A stretch of 64,000 nt of DNA, taken from a phage. Shown piece by piece: positions 407 through 27,473 of the stretch. Every line of letters starts with the position of its first letter. Position 1 is the stretch's first letter. The notes below the pieces were generated by a model that did not search any database, was not told where the DNA came from, and saw only the letters and a list, made by a program, of their open reading frames with translations. The translations under genes and the position numbers were made by a program. The stretch lies in the NCBI GenBank assembly GCA_024672275.1, contig GCA_024672275.1_4536.1. One strand, 5' to 3'.

Positions 407-3282
407 TGTCAAGAGTTAAGCACAATATTGACAACACGTTTCAGTTGATTGAAGGGTTGGTTCAGTTTTTGGAAAGAAATACTGGTCTTACCATAGATCC
501 TACGGTTCAGCACTACATTATCAACCCACAAAACGTATTGGCGAACAACAGACACTTTATTAACTGGACAGCGCAGGAAGGGCAACCAAACGGTGACGCT
601 ACTACCGAAGGTCAATCTGTGCTTATCACTGGTTTTGCTTATGCATATTTGGCTACAGGAGATAAAAAATATCTTGAATCTGCCGAGAAGTATTGGCAAG
701 CCTATATAGATCACTTCTTCGGGGGCCAACCTATTCCTGATCCTCCAGCTAAGTATCGTCCCAACTGGATCATCAATGGTAAAGAACCACGTTTAGCACA
801 CTACCCTCTCACAGATGATGGGTATCCTACGCACGGTGGGTTCAAAGGTAGCATGATGACTTGGATTAACGGAAGGACTGTTATTCCTAAAGGTGCGCCA
901 CATTGGGGAGAATACTTAGATAAAGCTTGGTTTGCTTTCAATGGTAATCTTGGTTGGAACTCTGTTAACGCAACAGTGTATGCAACTAACCCAGATGGTT
1001 CAACCAACTGGAAAGAATATGGAGATCAGTGGGACGTTGAATGGATTATAGATCGTCTAGGACGTAAAGTTGATTGGGATGGTAACATTTTATCTACAGG
1101 TCACAGGTTCGCAGAATATGGAACAGTGCAACTTAAAAATACTTCTGTGAACGGGGACTATAAATTCAACTACGCTACATGCAATCCTGTAGAACACGGT
1201 GGATATCTGCTTAAGCGTAATGAGATGTGGCATAACCGTCCTGTAAACGTTCCGGTAGAGTTAGGTTATCAAGACAATGCTTCCGATGCTGAAACGTGGT
1301 GGTGTGATGCAAACTACTTGATGTATCAGATCACAGGAGAGAGAAAATACTGGCTTTGCTGGCAATCTTCTTTATTGTTGTGTCAAGACTACTCAAACAT
1401 CGATATGTTTGATAAATTCTTCCGTAGATCTACGACAGCAATAATTCCTTTTACAGATGGTATCTCGTATGATTACTCATACCCATCTACAGCAATACCT
1501 AAATATTCTCGTGACGAGTTAGGATACACAGTAATTCGCCAAGATGTTGCAGCACAAACAACTCTAGAACAACAGGCAGTTTGGTTCAGAGTGGATCAGA
1601 ATTCAAAACTGCGTATTGAGTTTCAAGGCGTAGATGATGCAGGGGAAGGTGTTCTTTTCCGTCCAGAGTTAGAATTAAGCAAGACTAAGAGTGAAACAGA
1701 CACAGTGACATATCGTTGTGGCTTACCTCTTGGTGCAGCTAATATGACTAAGATGGATATACCTTTATCTAGTTTTATGCGCACCGAACCTCCTGGAGGT
1801 GGTGTATATATTATTGCTGAACCCAGAATTATTGTTGACTGGGGAAGCAATACTGTGATACAATATAAATATGCAACTGGTATTGCTGGGACAAATAGTG
1901 ATCAGATAGTTTCTGCTAATATGGATTCAGATGGTGGTTTTACTGTTGGGTTTTGGTTAACACCAACTAAAACAGCCAATTTAAAATCTATTACATATCG
2001 TTCATACGCAGATGATTTTAACATCACTATTACGGATTCCGCAGGTTGGAGATGGTGGGCCATGTTAGAAAAAACAAATTCTGCATGGGTTACTAAAGCT
2101 TTAAGTCCTGCTGATTTCAAATTAAGCACTTGGCAACCCAATCATAACGACACAGAGACAAAACCTTCGTCAATAAACCTGACTGCTGTTGATCAGATCA
2201 ACATTGCATTGGATTCTGAACCTGCAAATGGCTTGACAGGGGCAATCGATTTTTATTGTGTTAACGATATCCCATCTTTGTATTCTTCAGCCGCTGGTGA
2301 TGATTACACAATGTATTTCAGGGTTACAGTTTCATCTGAAAATCCTTATACAGCAAAACTTGGAGATTGTACAATACTGGACTATAAACTTGACAGTTTG
2401 AATTATACTCCAGGAATCATTCCATTTTCCAATATTAGTGATCCTAACACAGCATTATATGACGGTTGGCGTGGTATTCCTTACCCAGGTTATCAATACC
2501 CATCCTTATATTGTTTTAAAGGGAGAGATATTGACTGGGTTCGTATGAACAACAGTATAGACTTTTTATATGATTCACAAATGTGGTTTTATAATAAGTT
2601 TGCCCCTGTAATGCCTGGGCCAATGGCACAAGCTTATGTTTGGGATCGTTGGGATGCTCATAAATATGGAAACAAAAATGAGTTCACAATGTATCATTGG
2701 AACGATAAAGCTTGGGATGGTTATGAAGCACGAGCATTCTTCTGTGCGTGTCATACGGTATACGAACTAAAGCGACGAGGAGCCGAAGTTCCTGAAAAAC
2801 TTTTAACAGTTTGTAAAAACTGGATCAACTACCTGAAGTGGTTCCAAGATAACAACGAAGGAAGAACACCAACAATATTTTATCCCAACGGAGAAGTGGC
2901 TGCGCCTGTAGATGACTTTACAAGTCACATGTCTGCGCTCTTTATGGCGGGATGTGCTATAATGGGGATGGCTGGATATGATTCAGAAATTCCTAACATT
3001 AAAATAGTAGCAGACCGCTGTTTTGAACTTATTCAGGAAAACTATATTGTTCTTGGTCCTAATCACGTTATGAATGGTTGTTGGAGTGCTGCTCCTAGAC
3101 CAGACAGTGATAACGGAGTCTTCTTTGGCTTCCACGCTGGAGAGTTGTTACGTGGTTTTGGGTTGTATGCTTTATACAAAAAACTTAATCCCCAAAATGC
3201 ATTACCTGTTTTGGATTCGAGCAATATTCCTGCACTTACTGTTTTGACAATGGCAAACATTAGTGTGGACGTTACCGAGTAA
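406..3282 (+). CDS. large tail/baseplate structural protein (958 aa)
   Basis: Long ORF with ATGA overlap to the upstream ORF; W/Y/N/D-rich, no enzymatic motif recognised; position in tail module. Confidence 0.45.
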   Translation: MSRVKHNIDNTFQLIEGLVQFLERNTGLTIDPTVQHYIINPQNVLANNRHFINWTAQEGQPNGDATTEGQSVLITGFAYAYLATGDKKYLESAEKYWQAYIDHFFGGQPIPDPPAKYRPNWIINGKEPRLAHYPLTDDGYPTHGGFKGSMMTWINGRTVIPKGAPHWGEYLDKAWFAFNGNLGWNSVNATVYATNPDGSTNWKEYGDQWDVEWIIDRLGRKVDWDGNILSTGHRFAEYGTVQLKNTSVNGDYKFNYATCNPVEHGGYLLKRNEMWHNRPVNVPVELGYQDNASDAETWWCDANYLMYQITGERKYWLCWQSSLLLCQDYSNIDMFDKFFRRSTTAIIPFTDGISYDYSYPSTAIPKYSRDELGYTVIRQDVAAQTTLEQQAVWFRVDQNSKLRIEFQGVDDAGEGVLFRPELELSKTKSETDTVTYRCGLPLGAANMTKMDIPLSSFMRTEPPGGGVYIIAEPRIIVDWGSNTVIQYKYATGIAGTNSDQIVSANMDSDGGFTVGFWLTPTKTANLKSITYRSYADDFNITITDSAGWRWWAMLEKTNSAWVTKALSPADFKLSTWQPNHNDTETKPSSINLTAVDQINIALDSEPANGLTGAIDFYCVNDIPSLYSSAAGDDYTMYFRVTVSSENPYTAKLGDCTILDYKLDSLNYTPGIIPFSNISDPNTALYDGWRGIPYPGYQYPSLYCFKGRDIDWVRMNNSIDFLYDSQMWFYNKFAPVMPGPMAQAYVWDRWDAHKYGNKNEFTMYHWNDKAWDGYEARAFFCACHTVYELKRRGAEVPEKLLTVCKNWINYLKWFQDNNEGRTPTIFYPNGEVAAPVDDFTSHMSALFMAGCAIMGMAGYDSEIPNIKIVADRCFELIQENYIVLGPNHVMNGCWSAAPRPDSDNGVFFGFHAGELLRGFGLYALYKKLNPQNALPVLDSSNIPALTVLTMANISVDVTE

Positions 3283-3290
3283 GGGGTAAA

Positions 3291-5444
3291 ATGAAACAAG
3301 CTATATTTACTGTCACGCGAGACAAGAGAGTAAATGCGAGTTCATTTAACTACACGACTGTTGACGGAACAGCAGTCGCTGGTAGAGATTATATTGCAAA
3401 ATCGGGAACACTTGTGTTCCCTGATGATGCTGATTCTGCTACTATTGTGGTTGAAGTATTTGAACGACCAAAGAACTCAATAGATCTTAACTTCTCCCTC
3501 CAAGTTTCAGGGATTAGTCAAAATAACATGATGGTTGAAACAACCATCAATTGTATTATAACTACTATCCAAGAAAATACTACTCCAATAACTTGGACTA
3601 CAAAAGACGTTAAAATGTTCTCTCCTATGTATTGGACAATAGATTCTCAAGCAACGGAAAGTTGTTCTATTGTATCTCATGGAGACTCTTTTACTGCAAG
3701 ATTTGTAAACAGAACAACAGCAGGTTTGGCAGGGGTTATCTGGAGCACAGTTGACAAATATGACCATAAAGGTGTTGGGTATTTGCCTCACACAGATTTA
3801 AGTTCAGAGAAACTTTGGTTTAAAATGGAAATTAGTCAAAACATGCCAGGTTTTAAAGAAGAACCTTTGGTGCCGACTTTGACTGTAACTCTCCTGGATA
3901 AAAGTGTTCATTATGTCAGTTTAGGATTCTACGCTTCAGATATTTCAGAAGATGGTAAAACAGCCACAATAAAGTTAGATTTTAGTAATATCTTTTCTGG
4001 CCCTAATAATGATATTCCTTTGGATATGAGTGCTGTAGATAATATTTTCTTCTCTTTGATTACAGCAAGGTATGAAAAAATAGAAGAGGTTGTACCTATT
4101 GACAGTCAAGAGGCTTGGTTTACTTTCACTCTTCTTGAACCTACTTCTGGTTACAGTATGATGAAAGTCAGCAACCTTGTCCAGCCTGAACATGATATTC
4201 GCATGTGCACATCTTATGATGATATGTATAACCTGACTCCAGAGAGAGTTATTTATAATACATATGCACTAGGTTATCGTGGAATGATTAACCATTACAA
4301 CGGAATGTCTCACTATTATGAGTTCTCATGGAACGGAACATCTTGGGCTTTAAATAGATCTGTTTTCCTGAATCCGGCTACAGAAGCTTGGCTTAACAGT
4401 TTCCATTCTATAGCTAATGAAAATGGCTACACAATAATGAACTCTTTGAGTTTTGAGTTGATGAGCACAGTTTGTCCTGTTGAATGGGTCCAGCATGATT
4501 GGAACGATGCTCTTGCAGCAACAGGGTATAAGCCTCCTAGTTACGTGTTGTCTCCAACTATTGACGAAGGCATGGAATATTTGCAAAATGTTATTAACAA
4601 AATAGCATCTATTTCTCAAGCTAATAACATTCCAGTCGTCATTCAAATTGGTGAACCTTGGTGGTGGTATAATACAGCAAGTAAAATGCCTTGCATATAC
4701 GATTACACTACCAAACTGGCATTCAACACAGAAACTGGCTTATTTGCACAAGATGCAGGAACAATAGATAATTATAAAACAGGAACGCCGTTTGACGAAT
4801 ACTATGCATTTTTGTCTCGTAAACTGGGGTTAAGAGTTACAAAGTTTGCAACAGACACCAGAGCAACTTATCCTGGAGCTAAAGTAACATTGCTTCCGTT
4901 CTTACCGTCAATTATTGGCAACGGTTTGATGGAGAAAGTTAACTTTCCGTCTGATTACTACATTCCTGAAGCTTTTGATTTTTACTGTTCAGAGTGTTAT
5001 GACTGGCTTCTGGAAGGTAAGATGATGAAAGCATTTGATGCAATTACCATACCACATGAAAAATTAGGTTTTGAATATTCTGATATTCACTATCTTTCAG
5101 GTTTTGTTCCAGATGCTACTCTTGCGCCTTTGTATGGCTTCGATCCTGAATCAAACTACCGCACGTATCTTTGGAAAATGATTATAGGTAATATAGTGTT
5201 GAACGCCAACAAGTTTAACGGACTTACACAATATATATGGGCCTATCCTCAAATAATGCACGATTCCATTACGGTAGTTAACTCTCAATCCCAAGTTTTC
5301 TATATGGGTAATGTGCCTTTGAATTGCTATTTGCAAGATATCACTCTTAAACAAGCAAATGTTGAGATTGCTACCATAAGTGGAATTACATTAGCTACTA
5401 AATCTGGAGAAGATTTAGTAACAACACAAAAATTTTATATATAG
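3291..5444 (+). CDS. tail structural protein, putative fibre or baseplate component (717 aa)
   Basis: SD AAGGGG upstream of ATG; long ORF in tail-gene series; no catalytic motif recognised. Confidence 0.45.
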   Translation: MKQAIFTVTRDKRVNASSFNYTTVDGTAVAGRDYIAKSGTLVFPDDADSATIVVEVFERPKNSIDLNFSLQVSGISQNNMMVETTINCIITTIQENTTPITWTTKDVKMFSPMYWTIDSQATESCSIVSHGDSFTARFVNRTTAGLAGVIWSTVDKYDHKGVGYLPHTDLSSEKLWFKMEISQNMPGFKEEPLVPTLTVTLLDKSVHYVSLGFYASDISEDGKTATIKLDFSNIFSGPNNDIPLDMSAVDNIFFSLITARYEKIEEVVPIDSQEAWFTFTLLEPTSGYSMMKVSNLVQPEHDIRMCTSYDDMYNLTPERVIYNTYALGYRGMINHYNGMSHYYEFSWNGTSWALNRSVFLNPATEAWLNSFHSIANENGYTIMNSLSFELMSTVCPVEWVQHDWNDALAATGYKPPSYVLSPTIDEGMEYLQNVINKIASISQANNIPVVIQIGEPWWWYNTASKMPCIYDYTTKLAFNTETGLFAQDAGTIDNYKTGTPFDEYYAFLSRKLGLRVTKFATDTRATYPGAKVTLLPFLPSIIGNGLMEKVNFPSDYYIPEAFDFYCSECYDWLLEGKMMKAFDAITIPHEKLGFEYSDIHYLSGFVPDATLAPLYGFDPESNYRTYLWKMIIGNIVLNANKFNGLTQYIWAYPQIMHDSITVVNSQSQVFYMGNVPLNCYLQDITLKQANVEIATISGITLATKSGEDLVTTQKFYI

Positions 5445-23346: not shown

Positions 23347-26300
23347 TCAGTGACAACTGGCCCAGGAATTCCCCACGTCATATCCAGCAGTAAGCTGAAC
23401 ATTAAGATTGTAAAATTCTCCAGCCTTAGTAACAGCTAAAGCAGCAAGTTCACCTGCCCGACTATAAGCTGTAAACCATCCACCTTTGGGAGATTCATGA
23501 ATGTTAGCCCAAATTTGCCCTGTCTCTTTTTCCTTATTATGCTTCCATTCTTCAACTTTAGCAAGGCATTCTTTATCAATTTTCTTTTGTTCTTCAGGAT
23601 CGTCTACTTTCTTCCAACCTAATGATTCAGGTGAAAACCATTTGAATTCTACGAGGTTACGAGAAACTTCAAGCTGGGCTTCATCGTGATATGCAATCAT
23701 TTGTTGCACGAAGTCTTTATTCTTCCAGTCATCTTTAAAGAAGTCAACACTTAATCCTTCTTCTTCGATCATATCGTCATAAATAACCATTGCACGTTTA
23801 GCACAGATAACCCCACCGCTTTGGAACAGAGAGTTAAGAATCGCGTGAGCAGAACGAGTAGGAACCTTACGACCGTCAATACCCAAAACATATTGTTTAC
23901 CAGTCTTAACCCAGAAATCGTTTAAACGTTCTTTAAGACGCGCCAATGGGAATGCAGCTTCCCAGAAAGCATCGAACACCAATTGACCTGTAAACTTATC
24001 GCTACCAATTGTTTTAGCAACCTTGTCGGCTTGTGCACCATAGGTAATACCATACTTAACAGATTTAGCAGGACTACGTTCAAATTTACGTCCAATAGTT
24101 TCAGTGATACGTTTTGCCATCATTGTGTGAACATCATTAGGTTTCTCTAACAACAGAGCGTTACAATATTCGTGTGGCTCCGGCTCGTACCGCCAACAGT
24201 TTCCTGTGATGGTAATGCAGTCTTTCTGACGCATGACCCACGTACCAAGTTCTGTTTGTGGACACCAAACATCCTCTACACCCCACTCTTCAATAGTCAA
24301 ACTTTGAACAGGAATGTGAGAGCGGTTAGTCAATGTTGCCACTTTTACTTTCTGCTCTTTTGTATTGAAAGCTACAGAGATATTGCCTCCATGCACCAGG
24401 TACGAGGCAGTTAAAGCTGCTTCAAAAAGTTCACCTGGGTTCTGCGCCCAACGCCAAACAGGTTTTTGTTTATGTTCGTGCCAGTAACCATCTGCAATCA
24501 AGAAACCTTCCAAGAAAGCTACACGCTCGGCATGAGACATATTAACTACACGTTCTACCCACGGAACATCCCATTTACCTTGTTGAACATAAGTTAAACT
24601 ATTTACCTGATCTTGTTCCATGTTAAATGGAGCATTACAAATAATGTTATCTCCTGTGCAAAGCTCGGCAGTTGTTCTGACTTTAGGCACATAAGTATTC
24701 CCTTTACTACGGGTATTAACATACCAACGGTGATCTGCTGTTGCACGGTAAGTGTGTGATTTCCCTTTAATCTCAAACGTCTTACTATTTTTATAGAAGA
24801 CCTTACCTTTTACTTTAGTCCATTCTTTCAGACCTGTTTCAGCATTGTACCCTAAAATCTCATCCCCTTCCTTCAGGTCGTGATATCCTACCCAACCTTT
24901 ACGAGTCAAAGCTTGAGCATCCATCGGCACACAGTAGTGTGATTCAATTTTTGCTTCCAAAGAGTCGAAGTCGTAGCCAATCTGGAAGTATTTAGGAACC
25001 TCTACACCAAACAAGTTACGCATCTCCCATCCAAACAAAGATGTGACACGAGGAATATTAGCTACAGATCTGTGCTTCATACGAGAAGTTGCAGCATCAC
25101 ATGTAGCGGCTGGGGTAGGAATACGACCATCTGCCCTTACTGCGGCTAAGAAACCTTTATCGTATTCTTGATCTTCCTCATCTTCTTCCCAATCAGCACC
25201 ACCACCTAAAATAGAGTTCCTACGATGTTTATACGTTAAGTATTCTACAATCTGCGTAGCATAAGGGAATTTCTCACCCAAAGCTTGCAGGTTAGGACAA
25301 ATTTCTTTTTCCTGACCTTTGGTAAAACATGGGTTAGTCAATACTTTAAGACCGCGACCTTTACCTTTTGCTATACGCTCTTGAATCTTCCTTTCCAAAG
25401 TTTCCGGTGTGCACTCCAGATGATCACAACGATCCTGACAAAAATTAGAAGATAGAGTTTGCTCAACGTAAGCTCTAATACCTTTCTGAAGTTCTTCCTC
25501 GCTCTTTTTAATTTTGGTGCCAGATTTAAGCGTCAAGTCTTTATCTTTATATTCAGACGGTACCCAACCTAATCCTACAAGCCAGTTTTTAATATGGGTT
25601 GTATCGTTCAATGTTGCAGGAATGTTAGGATCACATAGAGGCTCATCTGCTGCAACTGGCAGTTTCCACTCTTTCCCCAACATAACTAACCACCAATCGC
25701 CATCCCTCTCTTCCAAATGACCATCATGTTTCTTAGCAAAATTGATCATATGGTTAGTTGGCTCTAAGTTCTTTTTAATTTGCAACTTAGGTGGAATAAA
25801 AGCCTTAAGATAACCTTTTGTTGCTGGTTTAGGTGGCAAAATAGGCTCAACGAGTAAACGAAGACGCTCCATTTCTGCATCCAAAAAAGCAAGGTTCTCT
25901 TCTGCTTGTTTCATGTTAAAAGCAAACCCACGGTGTTCCTGGCGTGTAATAATGTCTGCTACACGTTGTTCAAGTTCAAATGGACCTTCCCATTTATCAT
26001 AATCACCCCATTCTTCCATAAGGTAATTATATACGCTCGTATTGGCTTTGTTGTCATAGATACAGTAATAAAGCATATCCGCAGCAAAAGTCTTAAATCG
26101 ATCTTCTTCTGGAATCTCTTTACGGAAATCTATTTTTACATCACCACCTGCTTTTCGAGAAAGTGCTGCCAAGCTATGTCCTGATTTGCCCTCAATCTTT
26201 CGATCTGGGTTTAACACTTTACTCAAAATCAAGGAGTCAATAAGTTTTACCTTATTTTTGCCCCACGTATTATATTTAACACTGTAATCTAATCCATAAA

Positions 26301-26679
26301 ACAGTTTTGTAGCCAACCAGTCGTAGTTGATACCGTTGTGAGCCACAGCCATTTCAACTAGATATTCAGGCTTGTCTTTAAAATAACCTTCATGATTAAT
26401 AAAATCTGGGAAATCTTTTAGTTGAAAATGTGTGTAATCTTGCGCCACATACTCTTTAAGAACATATGTGTATTTACCATCTGACTCTTCGTAAGGACGC
26501 CCATCAAAGATGTATTTAGGGCCATCGTGGAAAGCTACTATTTCTCCTGTTTCATGGTTCTCTAAGACAATACAGTGCATTTGAAATGTGTCTTTGAGAC
26601 GATAAGGACTAGCTAAATAATCAATAGTGTCATTATTCAACAATCCGTTTGCTTCAATATCCCATGTAAACTTACTCAC
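23347..26679 (-). CDS. family A DNA polymerase with 3'-5' exonuclease domain, interrupted by an intein (1110 aa precursor)
   Basis: Exo I motif WDIEANGL; motif A-like GYDFDSLEAKIESHY; motif B RSPAKSVKYGITYG; motif C YHDE; ~245-aa insertion between motifs A and B. Confidence 0.85.
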   Translation of the reverse strand: MSKFTWDIEANGLLNNDTIDYLASPYRLKDTFQMHCIVLENHETGEIVAFHDGPKYIFDGRPYEESDGKYTYVLKEYVAQDYTHFQLKDFPDFINHEGYFKDKPEYLVEMAVAHNGINYDWLATKLFYGLDYSVKYNTWGKNKVKLIDSLILSKVLNPDRKIEGKSGHSLAALSRKAGGDVKIDFRKEIPEEDRFKTFAADMLYYCIYDNKANTSVYNYLMEEWGDYDKWEGPFELEQRVADIITRQEHRGFAFNMKQAEENLAFLDAEMERLRLLVEPILPPKPATKGYLKAFIPPKLQIKKNLEPTNHMINFAKKHDGHLEERDGDWWLVMLGKEWKLPVAADEPLCDPNIPATLNDTTHIKNWLVGLGWVPSEYKDKDLTLKSGTKIKKSEEELQKGIRAYVEQTLSSNFCQDRCDHLECTPETLERKIQERIAKGKGRGLKVLTNPCFTKGQEKEICPNLQALGEKFPYATQIVEYLTYKHRRNSILGGGADWEEDEEDQEYDKGFLAAVRADGRIPTPAATCDAATSRMKHRSVANIPRVTSLFGWEMRNLFGVEVPKYFQIGYDFDSLEAKIESHYCVPMDAQALTRKGWVGYHDLKEGDEILGYNAETGLKEWTKVKGKVFYKNSKTFEIKGKSHTYRATADHRWYVNTRSKGNTYVPKVRTTAELCTGDNIICNAPFNMEQDQVNSLTYVQQGKWDVPWVERVVNMSHAERVAFLEGFLIADGYWHEHKQKPVWRWAQNPGELFEAALTASYLVHGGNISVAFNTKEQKVKVATLTNRSHIPVQSLTIEEWGVEDVWCPQTELGTWVMRQKDCITITGNCWRYEPEPHEYCNALLLEKPNDVHTMMAKRITETIGRKFERSPAKSVKYGITYGAQADKVAKTIGSDKFTGQLVFDAFWEAAFPLARLKERLNDFWVKTGKQYVLGIDGRKVPTRSAHAILNSLFQSGGVICAKRAMVIYDDMIEEEGLSVDFFKDDWKNKDFVQQMIAYHDEAQLEVSRNLVEFKWFSPESLGWKKVDDPEEQKKIDKECLAKVEEWKHNKEKETGQIWANIHESPKGGWFTAYSRAGELAALAVTKAGEFYNLNVQLTAGYDVGNSWASCH
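24199..24933 (-). mobile_element. intein (Hint domain with degenerate LAGLIDADG block), residues 583-827 of the polymerase
   Basis: Begins with Cys right after motif A (ESHY|CVPMDAQAL), block B-like TADHRWYV, LAGLIDADG-like FLEGFLIADGYW, ends ...ITITGN|C with Cys +1 then WRYE; coordinates by residue arithmetic. Confidence 0.6.
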
Positions 26680-27473
26680 TATTCCTCCTTTCTAATGTTC
26701 TCCAGAACCCACTGAAGTTCTTTTAAACTTAAACTTCTTACTCCCGCAGTTTTACTAGCTTCAGCTTTAAGTAACGGGTAAGCCTCAATGATACGCGTTT
26801 TAAGATCAGAAGTCAAGGCTTTTAAAAAATAGGTAGATGCTTCAGATAAAGAATCTTCTTCTGATAACACTTTACCTGCACTTGCTCCCGCTCTCCTAAC
26901 GACTATATCGTAGTCTTTACTGTTACCTAATACGAATAGTCGATTCTCTCCTAAAACAACGGGAGAACGCTTCTCGTTGCGTTTAATCCATACCTGGAAT
27001 ACACAAGGAACATCCCAAGGTTCTCCATGAAGAATAAAAGATCCTTTTGGACATTCTTCTTCGTAAAGAAGATGCATATGGGGATTTAGCTTGTGTGCAA
27101 AAAAGATTTTTTGAAATGTGCGAGGCAAGATAAAACAAATACCACCTTCGTTATCCAGCATTTCAGCACAATGGTTAAAGAATTTAATGGCAAGACTAGC
27201 ATTTTTTCCAAATGGAGGATTACCGACAAAAGCAGTTACACTACCAACAGACTCAACAGATTGAGCTAAAAAATCTGCCTCAATACAATCTTCAAACTTA
27301 GGGTCAATATCAAAAGAAGTTATGTTTTTAAAACAAGAAGAGAAAGCTCCTTCTCCCGCAGATGGTTCTACGTAGTTAGCTTCCTCTCCAAAAATTTCTT
27401 TGATCTTATCACATAAGAACCCCGCATAAGCGGGGTTAGTGTAATATTGATCAAGTGTGTTCAACTTGCTCAA
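26679..27473 (-). CDS. DNA N6-adenine methyltransferase (264 aa)
   Basis: SAM-binding-like VEPSAGEGAF and catalytic NPPFG motif; 1-nt stop/start overlap with the polymerase gene. Confidence 0.6.
   Translation of the reverse strand: MSKLNTLDQYYTNPAYAGFLCDKIKEIFGEEANYVEPSAGEGAFSSCFKNITSFDIDPKFEDCIEADFLAQSVESVGSVTAFVGNPPFGKNASLAIKFFNHCAEMLDNEGGICFILPRTFQKIFFAHKLNPHMHLLYEEECPKGSFILHGEPWDVPCVFQVWIKRNEKRSPVVLGENRLFVLGNSKDYDIVVRRAGASAGKVLSEEDSLSEASTYFLKALTSDLKTRIIEAYPLLKAEASKTAGVRSLSLKELQWVLENIRKEE

Follow-up and report, generated by a model that had tools for sequence, protein, structure and literature searches.

Does a 245-residue segment that interrupts a phage DNA polymerase directly after its catalytic motif A represent an intein, and if so, is it likely to splice and to spread? 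The window analysed here is a 64,000-nucleotide stretch of phage DNA (GenBank assembly GCA_024672275.1, contig GCA_024672275.1_4536.1). Our analysis indicates, with high confidence, that the segment is a functional intein that moves horizontally and interrupts the essential DNA polymerase of a phAPEC8-like E. coli myovirus (genus Phapecoctavirus).

An insertion at motif A of a family A DNA polymerase

The open reading frame at positions 23347-26679 (minus strand) of this E. coli phage window encodes a 1110-aa family A DNA polymerase precursor that matches the Pfam model DNA_pol_A (E = 2e-11) and the PHROG 17 DNA polymerase profile (E = 4e-106), and that is 99.8% identical in amino acid sequence to Phapecoctavirus polymerases. 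The gene is organized as follows.

23347-26679, minus strand: intein-containing family A DNA polymerase gene, 1110 aa, with a GTG start and the stop codon counted in (open reading frame list, Pfam DNA_pol_A, PHROG 17)
24934-26679, minus strand: N-extein, aa 1-582, with motif A at its end; colinear with the 865-aa phAPEC8 polymerase
24934-24978, minus strand: polymerase motif A GYDFDSLEAKIESHY, aa 568-582, ending directly at the insert
24199-24933, minus strand: intein, 245 aa, Cys1 to Asn245 (polymerase aa 583-827); exact gap in phAPEC8 and many other Phapecoctavirus records, HINT fold, PaulScherrer annotation
23347-24198, minus strand: C-extein, aa 828-1110 plus stop, with motif B inside; colinear with the phAPEC8 polymerase
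24037-24078, minus strand: polymerase motif B RSPAKSVKYGITYG, from aa 868, in the C-extein

The insert (CVPMDAQ...CITITGN) is followed by Cys at polymerase residue 828. When it is taken out, motifs A and B lie 40 residues apart, as a first-pass annotation of this locus had estimated (about 40 aa).

Near-identical polymerases lack exactly the inserted segment

The polymerase of phAPEC8 has 865 aa, and its gene carries a precise 735-bp gap at this position, where the flanks (...CACTAC followed by TGTTGGCGG...) are identical to those of the window. Presence and absence were counted with a 1735-nt query, which intein-less records match as two pieces spanning exactly 1000 nt. The insert is found in 34 of the 122 records that match this query, and the intein is present at 90% amino acid identity or more in 35 records. 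Polymerases that are 99.9% identical over the exteins lack precisely this segment. The comparison with intein-free polymerases, which had been put forward as a check, thus uncovers near-identical polymerases without exactly 735 bp, and the insert is therefore not a chance pattern. These presence and absence data also rule out a conserved polymerase domain.

The predicted fold leads to the same identification. An AlphaFold2 model of the intein (pLDDT 82, pTM 0.81) was compared with the PDB by Foldseek, and every one of the 44 matches with E ≤ 1e-3 is an intein or a Hint/BIL domain, with the TliVMA intein (1.7e-7), the class 3 AceL NrdHF intein (7e-7) and PI-SceI at the top. A profile built from the intein family matches solved inteins with E values from 6e-6 to 1e-2, including the Spl DnaX mini-intein (6e-6), AceL NrdHF (1.4e-5) and PI-MtuI, and the Pfam models Hint, Intein_splicing and LAGLIDADG_3 are each matched by 4 of 29 family members. 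Scanned on its own, the intein matched no Pfam, NCBIfam or PHROG intein model at threshold (best LAGLIDADG_3, E = 0.14), and phmmer against PDB sequences gave intein matches below threshold only. The intein call rests on structure prediction, the family profile and comparative genomics. Foreign base composition was rejected as a mark of the element, since its GC content (42.2%) is close to that of the exteins (39-41%).

In GenBank record MZ501100 of phage PaulScherrer, the product is named 'intein-containing DNA polymerase precursor', and a mat_peptide labelled 'intein' marks this insertion site; the BASEL paper (PMC8594841) gives comparative genomics as the basis of its intein annotations. 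A literature search for an intein in phi92 or Phapecoctavirus returned the sentence in the BASEL methods only. The element is thus of a known kind and already annotated in a sister phage, and the first-pass annotation identified it correctly: its 245-aa intein right after motif A, at 24199-24933, has exact coordinates, and intein-less alleles, fold and GenBank annotation all support an intein.

It is very improbable that the segment instead stays in the protein, either as a tolerated or functional accessory polymerase domain or as a Hint-type domain that only cuts the protein in two. Such a reading draws on the failure of curated intein HMMs to detect the sequence and on a literature search that found no experimental splicing data or junction peptide for this or any Stephanstirmvirinae polymerase. 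However, the existence of extein-identical (99.9%) polymerases without the segment is at odds with a conserved structural domain, and the insert adjoins catalytic motif A, at most five residues downstream. Moreover, its terminal Asn and the Cys, Ser or Thr at position +1, which are required for ligation and not for cleavage alone, are invariant in the family, and the same module is found in unrelated host proteins. Carriers of the insert, among them phi92, ESCO5 and PaulScherrer, are propagated isolates. Since these phages are viable, their essential polymerase must presumably be produced, from which we infer excision of the intein with extein ligation.

Splicing residues and a penultimate glycine

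The sequence elements that would support splicing are located as follows.

24892-24933, minus strand: splicing block A CVPMDAQALTRKGW; Cys1 invariant in 120 of 120 family members
24718-24753, minus strand: splicing block B TYRATADHRWYV, with Thr65 (B:7), His68 (B:10) and Trp70 (B:12, the 'W' of WCT), conserved at 100, 100 and 99%
24226-24276, minus strand: splicing block F EDVWCPQTELGTWVMRQ, with Cys224 at F:4 and F:13 without His
24196-24219, minus strand: splicing block G and Cys828 (+1), CITITGN/C, with Thr243 (G:5), Gly244 (G:6, replacing His) and Asn245 (G:7); in the family, a TGN end in 118 of 119 copies and Ser, Cys or Thr at +1 in 119 of 119

The register of block B was set against H68 and M70 of AceL NrdHF by HMM alignment and the residue numbers in PMC7891396. 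An N-terminal Cys (C1), the Thr-x-x-His of block B (T65, H68), a C-terminal Asn (N245) and a +1 Cys (C828) are all present. The Cys start, TADHRWYV, FLEGFLIADGYW, the penultimate Gly and ITITGN followed by Cys, all reported in the first-pass annotation, were found as described. Residues C1, T65, H68, C224, T243 and N245 are conserved at 100% in 119-120 diverse copies.

We propose that the gene is expressed as the 1110-aa precursor, in which the HINT domain (intein aa 1 to about 100 and about 206 to 245) would juxtapose both junctions. Cys583 (intein Cys1), together with Thr647 and His650 of block B, would convert the Tyr582-Cys583 bond to a thioester, after which the N-extein would be transferred to Cys828 at position +1. 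Cyclization of Asn827 would then release the intein, and an S-to-N shift would yield the 865-aa polymerase with the junction SHY-CWRY, as in the naturally intein-free phAPEC8 enzyme.

In this scheme, Asn cyclization would proceed without the usual penultimate His. The residues that ordinarily help this step are His at G:6 and His at F:13, and the intein has neither; G:6 is Gly244, and Gly occupies this position in 99% of the family. The fixation of Gly in 118 of the 119 full-length metagenomic relatives, all with a TGN terminus, marks it as a family trait. The mycobacteriophage Bethlehem RDF intein, which also has a penultimate Gly, splices completely and better than its G-to-H mutant (PMC5050341), and the class 3 AceL NrdHF intein likewise lacks both His residues (PMC7891396). 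As these and other known inteins show, splicing can proceed with Gly, or without His, at the penultimate position. The first-pass annotation had thus read the residue itself correctly, but its suggestion that the element may be decaying does not hold given the 118 relatives and the splicing of a penultimate-Gly intein.

The pattern of substitution is also that of a maintained element. The intein differs from the PaulScherrer copy by 52 synonymous and 7 non-synonymous changes. Relative to this copy from the sister genus, dN/dS is 0.028 across the intein as a whole and 0.061 for its central domain. Judged from these low ratios and the family-fixed Gly, the intein is not decaying.

Class 1 or class 3 chemistry

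Next to the invariant Cys1, the intein contains the complete WCT triplet of class 3 inteins (defined in PMC2807308 and PMC5222942): W70 (B:12), C224 (F:4) and T243 (G:5), conserved at 99, 100 and 100% in 120 family members. Its register was checked against the residue numbers of AceL NrdHF, Mch and Mle. The triplet had been overlooked in the first-pass annotation.

An alternative for the same intein is a class 3 route, wherein Cys224 (polymerase Cys806) would attack the N-terminal junction to give a block-F branched thioester that then passes to Cys828, leaving Cys1 dispensable or regulatory. We consider this route unlikely, although the exact register and near-universal retention of WCT speak for it, as do the 21 residues from Cys F:4 to the terminal Asn, the same as in Mle DnaB (C124/N145), and the presence of Cys124 and Thr143 in MchDnaB1. 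By 2010, the known WCT inteins numbered 37, of which 3 begin with Ser or Cys, and Tori and Perler reportedly widened class 3 in 2011 to WCT inteins starting with either residue. AceL NrdHF, which shares the missing G:6 and F:13 His residues (PMC7891396), is the second-best match both by structure and by profile; class 1 inteins score equally.

Against this, Cys1 is invariant in 119 full-length and all 43 variant-length copies (162 in total), and Thr B:7 is invariant too. Such invariance would be predicted for a Cys1 that acts as the nucleophile, whereas class 3 inteins place no constraint on residue 1. In a later survey (PMC7891396), the operational definition of class 3 is the lack of Cys at position 1. 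Class 1 also contains inteins with Cys at F:4, which are polyphyletic (PMC3196547), and only one residue is more common than Cys at that position. The +1 residue is Cys here, which is rare in class 3, where Ser or Thr is typical; across the family, +1 is Ser in 53, Cys in 36 and Thr in 30 copies. Finally, the family profile does not single out DnaB-type class 3 inteins, none of which appeared in the family profile search. We favour the route through Cys1 as the more probable of the two.

A single LAGLIDADG half-domain and spread of the intein

Whether the intein can also promote its own spread depends on its central domain and on the insertion site.

24319-24534, minus strand: single LAGLIDADG half-domain, intein aa 134-205, alpha-beta-beta-alpha-beta-beta
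24481-24519, minus strand: LAGLIDADG motif AFLEGFLIADGYW with Asp148 and Gly149; the invariant Gln164 also lies in the half-domain
24183-24198, minus strand: presumed homing site, 3' half TGTTGGCGGTACGAGC, a putative cleavage target
24934-24944, minus strand: presumed homing site, other half AATCACACTAC; joined, the two halves give 27 bp without a mismatch between Phapecoctavirus and Justusliebigvirus alleles

The domain has the alpha-beta-beta-alpha-beta-beta core fold of LAGLIDADG domains, and its motif, LEGFLIADG, keeps the catalytic Asp (D148) and the Gly (G149), positions that hold Asp or Glu in 98% and Gly in 99% of the family. Gln164, at the end of beta-2, is conserved at 100% in 120 copies of about 30-50% identity, and presumably corresponds by position to Gln47 of I-CreI. 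The block had been called degenerate, yet the motif is intact; the intein instead lacks the entire first half-domain of the 310-360-aa relatives, which leaves one half-domain per chain. The insertion site shows no palindromic symmetry: the best arrangement pairs 5 of 11 positions, no more than the background (mean 5.8). A single half-domain and a site without symmetry argue against a classical homodimeric endonuclease. A literature search on single-LAGLIDADG inteins gave nothing relevant.

Comparison between genera reveals a signature of mobility. Intein DNA is 92% identical between the two genera, in contrast to 72-80% for the exteins, and dS is 0.44 for the intein versus 1.3-5 for the exteins. 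This greater likeness of the intein DNA indicates recent horizontal transfer. There is no clear co-conversion tract: between the window and phAPEC8, 42 of 2598 extein nt differ, and these differences do not concentrate around the junction. Close to the insertion site, SNPs specific to the window side with PaulScherrer in 12 cases versus 3, at a density far too low for a tract from a Justusliebigvirus donor, and this agreement was discounted as tract evidence for that reason.

We suggest that the intein is a selfish insertion at the DNA level, sporadic in close relatives and passed between two phage genera, and that its conserved central half-domain most likely still aids homing, possibly as a dimer. 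The indirect signs of homing are the sporadic distribution, the intergeneric transfer and the purifying selection. A serious alternative, to which we give somewhat less than even weight, is that the intein splices but its LAGLIDADG half-domain has lost activity and is retained only for precursor folding, while spread is passive through homologous recombination during co-infection. Only one of the two half-domains of the longer relatives is left, the site lacks the symmetry that a homodimer favours, and mini-intein relatives without an endonuclease domain persist as well. Phages of this group recombine readily, and with the 27 bp of flank identical across genera, passive transfer is feasible. 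However, the catalytic acidic residue, the Gly and the Gln are conserved over 120 copies despite the low overall identity, and the dN/dS of the half-domain is only 0.061. The architecture of about 250 aa also occurs at no fewer than eight insertion sites, which implies that new sites were still invaded after the first half was lost. If the half-domain does work, either two inteins or two precursors would have to pair, or the enzyme would be a nickase; no description of such a homing endonuclease in an intein was found.

A family of compact inteins

The family to which this intein belongs is visible only by exhaustive representative search, as a word-indexed homologue search gave 9 proteins. 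At E ≤ 1e-3, that search recovers 2206 phage and metagenome sequences, each representing a 50%-identity cluster, and members of the compact architecture measure 228-263 aa (median 251). These compact members sit in family A polymerases, primase-helicases, portal proteins and DUF6321 proteins, among other hosts. A bolder and rather improbable reading is that these sequences make up a sizeable and mostly undescribed family of inteins of about 250 aa in phages and metagenomes, with an invariant Cys1, WCT and fixed Thr-Gly-Asn and one catalytically intact LAGLIDADG half-domain, that still invades new sites and genes; a hybrid class 1/class 3 chemistry would then be conceivable.

Intein annotation of the polymerase is currently confined to PaulScherrer and SD2; in ZCKP1, anhysbys, ESCO5, phi92 and about 30 further deposited phages, the polymerase gene needs annotation as an intein-containing precursor. 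The near-identical intein-plus and intein-minus phages offer a clean natural system for intein homing on laboratory E. coli, and ECO340P1 and ECO340P2 form such a pair from the same isolation strain. For the intein field, the element provides a compact intein of 245 aa that combines WCT with Cys1 and lacks both cyclization-assisting His residues, as well as a test case for whether a single LAGLIDADG half-domain within an intein can drive mobility.

Comparison with known systems

The closest known counterpart is the intein of PaulScherrer (Bas60, MZ501100, bas60_0044; Justusliebigvirus), which shares the site ESHY/C...GN/CWRY, the length of 245 aa and 97% amino acid and 92% nucleotide identity. 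Its host polymerase belongs to another genus and is 83% identical, and the GenBank mat_peptide is shifted downstream by one codon relative to the Cys...Asn boundaries that make sense chemically. Phage SD2 bears the same intein annotation as PaulScherrer, whereas records from the genus of the window, such as ZCKP1, anhysbys and ESCO5, have none. A more distant member of the same family is the 324-aa polymerase intein of Phapecoctavirus nieznany, ukendt and AV126 (32% identity), which has CVP...TGN, Trp B:12, Cys F:4 and Thr G:5 in the same gene. In contrast, it lies inside motif B (KSVKYG/.../CTYGAQ) and has two LAGLIDADG motifs.

Class 3 inteins (Bethlehem DnaB, Mch/Msm DnaB-1, AceL NrdHF) resemble the window intein in WCT positions and spacing and in their phage association, and AceL NrdHF also in lacking the G:6 and F:13 His residues. 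The window intein and all its relatives differ from them in starting with Cys and keeping Thr B:7, and the window intein, at most a tentative class 3 candidate, in its +1 Cys. The Bethlehem gp51 (RDF) intein is likewise a phage intein that splices efficiently with a penultimate Gly (PMC5050341), but it resides in an unrelated host protein and has a full-size endonuclease domain. Ceu ClpP and the archaeal inteins of Chen et al. 2000 also lack the penultimate His.

PI-SceI, TliVMA and PI-PfuI, the best structural matches, carry LAGLIDADG between blocks B and F of the HINT domain, as does the window intein. They have two LAGLIDADG motifs per chain and 360-540 aa, in contrast to the second half-domain only in 245 aa here. 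Like the window intein, I-CreI, I-CeuI and I-MsoI have a single motif in each chain, an alpha-beta-beta-alpha-beta-beta core, and conserved Gln and acidic residues. These enzymes, however, are free-standing or intron-encoded, measure about 160-210 aa, read DNA through long hairpins and cut pseudo-palindromic sites, whereas the half-domain of the window intein has about 75-100 aa, lies inside an intein and faces a target without symmetry.

A polymerase gene interrupted after motif A

The minus-strand open reading frame (ORF) at 23347..26679 encodes a 1110-aa protein that matches Pfam DNA_pol_A and PHROG 17 "DNA polymerase" (E = 4e-106). All sequence features on which the first-pass annotation based its intein are found in this ORF, and they map exactly as follows.

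24199..24933, minus strand: intein, polymerase residues 583–827, CVPMDAQ...CITITGN, then Cys828
Motif A: GYDFDSLEAKIESHY, last residue 582, adjoining the intein
Motif B: RSPAKSVKYGITYG, first residue 868

Once the 245-aa insert is taken out, 40 residues separate motifs A and B, as originally estimated. The GTG start of the polymerase (window 26679) shares 1 nt with the end of an upstream N6-adenine methyltransferase ORF (26679..27473, minus strand), an overlap also present in the phAPEC8 annotation that probably reflects translational coupling. An 80-aa plus-strand antisense ORF in the ORF list (window 24172-24414) lies within the junction region of the intein and C-extein; its status as a gene is unsupported.

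The intein sequence itself gave only a sub-threshold best hit to LAGLIDADG_3 (E = 0.14) among curated Pfam HMMs, and none in NCBIfam or PHROGs. An AlphaFold2 model (pLDDT 82, pTM 0.81) was used for a Foldseek search of the PDB, in which all 44 matches at E ≤ 1e-3 are inteins or Hint/BIL domains, led by the TliVMA intein, the class 3 AceL NrdHF intein, PI-SceI and the Ssp DnaB mini-intein. Searching with a profile built from 29 relatives gave matches to the Spl DnaX mini-intein (6e-6), AceL NrdHF (1.4e-5), NrdJ-1, PI-MtuI and gp41-1, and Pfam Hint, Intein_splicing and LAGLIDADG_3 are each matched singly by 4 of these relatives. The ortholog in the Justusliebigvirus PaulScherrer (GenBank MZ501100) is annotated as "intein-containing DNA polymerase precursor" with a mat_peptide "intein"; inteins in its source, the BASEL collection, were identified via comparative genomics (PMC8594841). 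Together with its precise absence from phAPEC8 (below), these data establish the segment as an intein, as first proposed, of a known kind already annotated in a sister phage. The PaulScherrer mat_peptide (locus 3004-3738) lies one codon too far downstream (Val...Cys instead of Cys...Asn), and its boundaries are chemically wrong; because Cys flanks both ends, the mature polymerase sequence is unaffected.

Presence and absence among related phages

The window polymerase is 99.4–99.8% identical to those of Phapecoctaviruses such as ZCKP1, anhysbys and ESCO5. In the type phage phAPEC8, whose polymerase has 865 aa, the DNA ...GAATCACACTAC/TGTTGGCGGTAC... equals the two flanks exactly, minus precisely 735 bp. 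With the intein and 500 nt of each flank as a 1735-nt query, 122 phage records match; the insert is present in 34, and many others give a two-piece match covering exactly 1000 nt. Thirty-five records encode the intein protein at ≥90% identity. One host strain yielded both a phage with the intein, ECO340P2, and one that lacks it, ECO340P1. The alternative that homologues keep the segment as a conserved polymerase domain is thus ruled out, as near-identical polymerases lack it.

In OQ031492.1 (Escherichia phage MRostami-2023b), alignment is confined to the flanks (58% coverage) of an intein-sized, 1733-nt match at 101009-102741; between them may lie masked or poor-quality sequence, or another insert of equal length. 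Three phages labelled as infecting Campylobacter jejuni (B15, MG065650; A145, MG065645; C3, MG065656) carry this E. coli-phage polymerase, with exteins 99.9% identical to the window's in B15 and flanks of ~81% DNA identity in A145 and C3, and their host labels look doubtful. In the Justusliebigviruses outra, ESCO8 and alia, the polymerase is annotated "putative DNA polymerase, part I", which suggests a gene split or interrupted elsewhere.

Transfer and purifying selection

Between the window and PaulScherrer, extein DNA is 72% and 80% identical and intein DNA 92%, with dS values of 1.3–5 for the exteins versus 0.44 for the intein. The intein therefore crossed between the lineages when their polymerases had long since separated. 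A 27-bp core, AATCACACTAC/TGTTGGCGGTACGAGC, is identical in Phapecoctavirus and Justusliebigvirus and is a natural candidate homing site. The suggestion that the element is decaying is contradicted by 52 synonymous versus 7 non-synonymous intein changes, giving an overall dN/dS of 0.028; by region, the ratio is 0.023 for the N-terminal HINT segment, 0.061 for the central domain and 0 for the C-terminal segment.

Among SNPs relative to phAPEC8 within ~470 nt upstream and ~500 nt downstream of the intein (window 23699-25433), agreement with PaulScherrer is 12 versus 3, and it turns round further upstream (1 versus 6). This pattern, too sparse to interpret, could be intein-linked haplotype structure or faint, old co-conversion.

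A large family with a fixed C terminus

An exhaustive HMMER search over 1.84 billion cluster representatives yields 2206 matches at E ≤ 1e-3, of which 79 reach E ≤ 1e-30. The best 158 proteins include 119 end-to-end copies (228–263 aa, median 251), all beginning with Cys and all except one ending in Thr-Gly-Asn; at +1, 53 copies have Ser, 36 have Cys and 30 have Thr. A 120-sequence alignment shows no variation at C1, G13, T65, H68, Q164, C224, T243 and N245 and 99% conservation at W70, G149 and G244; position 148 is Asp (89%) or Glu (9%). The penultimate Gly, correctly noted at first but read as a possible mark of decay, is therefore a fixed family character. Indeed, penultimate His is often absent from phage inteins, and a mycobacteriophage intein with penultimate Gly splices completely, better than its own Gly-to-His mutant (PMC5050341).

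The inteins sit in proteins typical of phages, namely family A polymerases at no fewer than four sites, including the window's (metagenomic proteins P0011, P0019 and P0022), primase-helicases, DUF6321 proteins, one SU10-type portal protein and others. Seven metagenomic polypeptides hold two family copies (P0025, P0039, P0051, P0058, P0072, P0076 and P0129); those in P0025 follow YTSQKLAE and a GHYHKFDY motif, the latter in what looks, at a guess, like a metallophosphoesterase.

A single LAGLIDADG half-domain

The LAGLIDADG block was first described as degenerate, but LEGFLIADG is a good match with its catalytic Asp kept; the domain is reduced, the motif is not. Relatives of 310–360 aa carry two motifs, spaced ~100 residues from each other, and in mini forms of 138–163 aa the motif is missing altogether. 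Gln164, at the end of β2, presumably corresponds by position to Gln47 of I-CreI. Family-wide conservation of the Asp/Glu-Gly pair and Gln164, with the spread of the ~250-aa form to many sites, argues that the half-domain may still be functional. Palindromic symmetry was looked for at the insertion site and is absent, which counts against a classical homodimeric enzyme. Putative roles are DNA cutting, nicking or folding support alone.

The Phapecoctaviruses nieznany (MN850598, CDS 1105-4674), ukendt, nepoznato and AV126 carry another member of the family, 324 aa long and 32% identical, inserted in motif B of the polymerase (KSVKYG/C...LTGN/CTYGAQ). Its two motifs in nieznany are FLGWLLSDG and LEAFWMADG, and the window intein aligns to the second only. 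At the window's site these phages have Thr for Cys (SHY-TWRY) and diverged DNA. Related inteins have thus invaded one gene at two sites.

Proposed splicing route

We infer that, in the translated precursor, HINT folding would bring Tyr582-Cys583 and Asn827-Cys828 together, whereupon Cys583, or less likely Cys806, would form a thioester that is transferred to Cys828. Succinimide formation at Asn827, with no penultimate His, and an S-to-N shift would then release a 28-kDa intein and leave a polymerase of 865 aa joined, as in phAPEC8, at SHY-CWRY.

The choice of cysteine arises from a signature absent from the first-pass annotation. Block assignment (His68, B:10; Trp70, B:12; Cys224, F:4; Thr243, G:5; Gly244, G:6; Asn245, G:7) reveals a complete Trp-Cys-Thr (WCT) triplet. 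WCT inteins beginning with Ser or Cys reportedly use the class 3 route (Tori and Perler, 2011). The triplet at B:12, F:4 and G:5 is a hallmark of class 3 inteins, in which the nucleophile at the N-terminal junction is the block F cysteine and not residue 1 (PMC2807308; PMC5222942), and 3 of 37 WCT inteins start with Ser or Cys (Tori et al.). However, Cys1 is invariant in 119 full-length and 43 variant-length copies, as is Thr at B:7, and the +1 residue here is Cys. Moreover, Cys at F:4 is also known, polyphyletically, in class 1 inteins (PMC3196547; PMC4031507), and a recent survey's definition of class 3 requires the absence of Cys1. We therefore regard a class 3 route as rather unlikely, and canonical splicing initiated by Cys1 as more likely.

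Follow-up might be repaid by this combination of WCT and Cys1, and by the single half-domain conserved across a family that is very large and mostly metagenomic. The block residues are spaced as in solved and characterized class 3 members, namely Mle DnaB (H65, W67, C124 and N145), MchDnaB1 (H65, W67, C124 and T143) and AceL NrdHF (H68, M70, C124, T144 and N146), which like the window intein has neither a G:6 nor an F:13 His.
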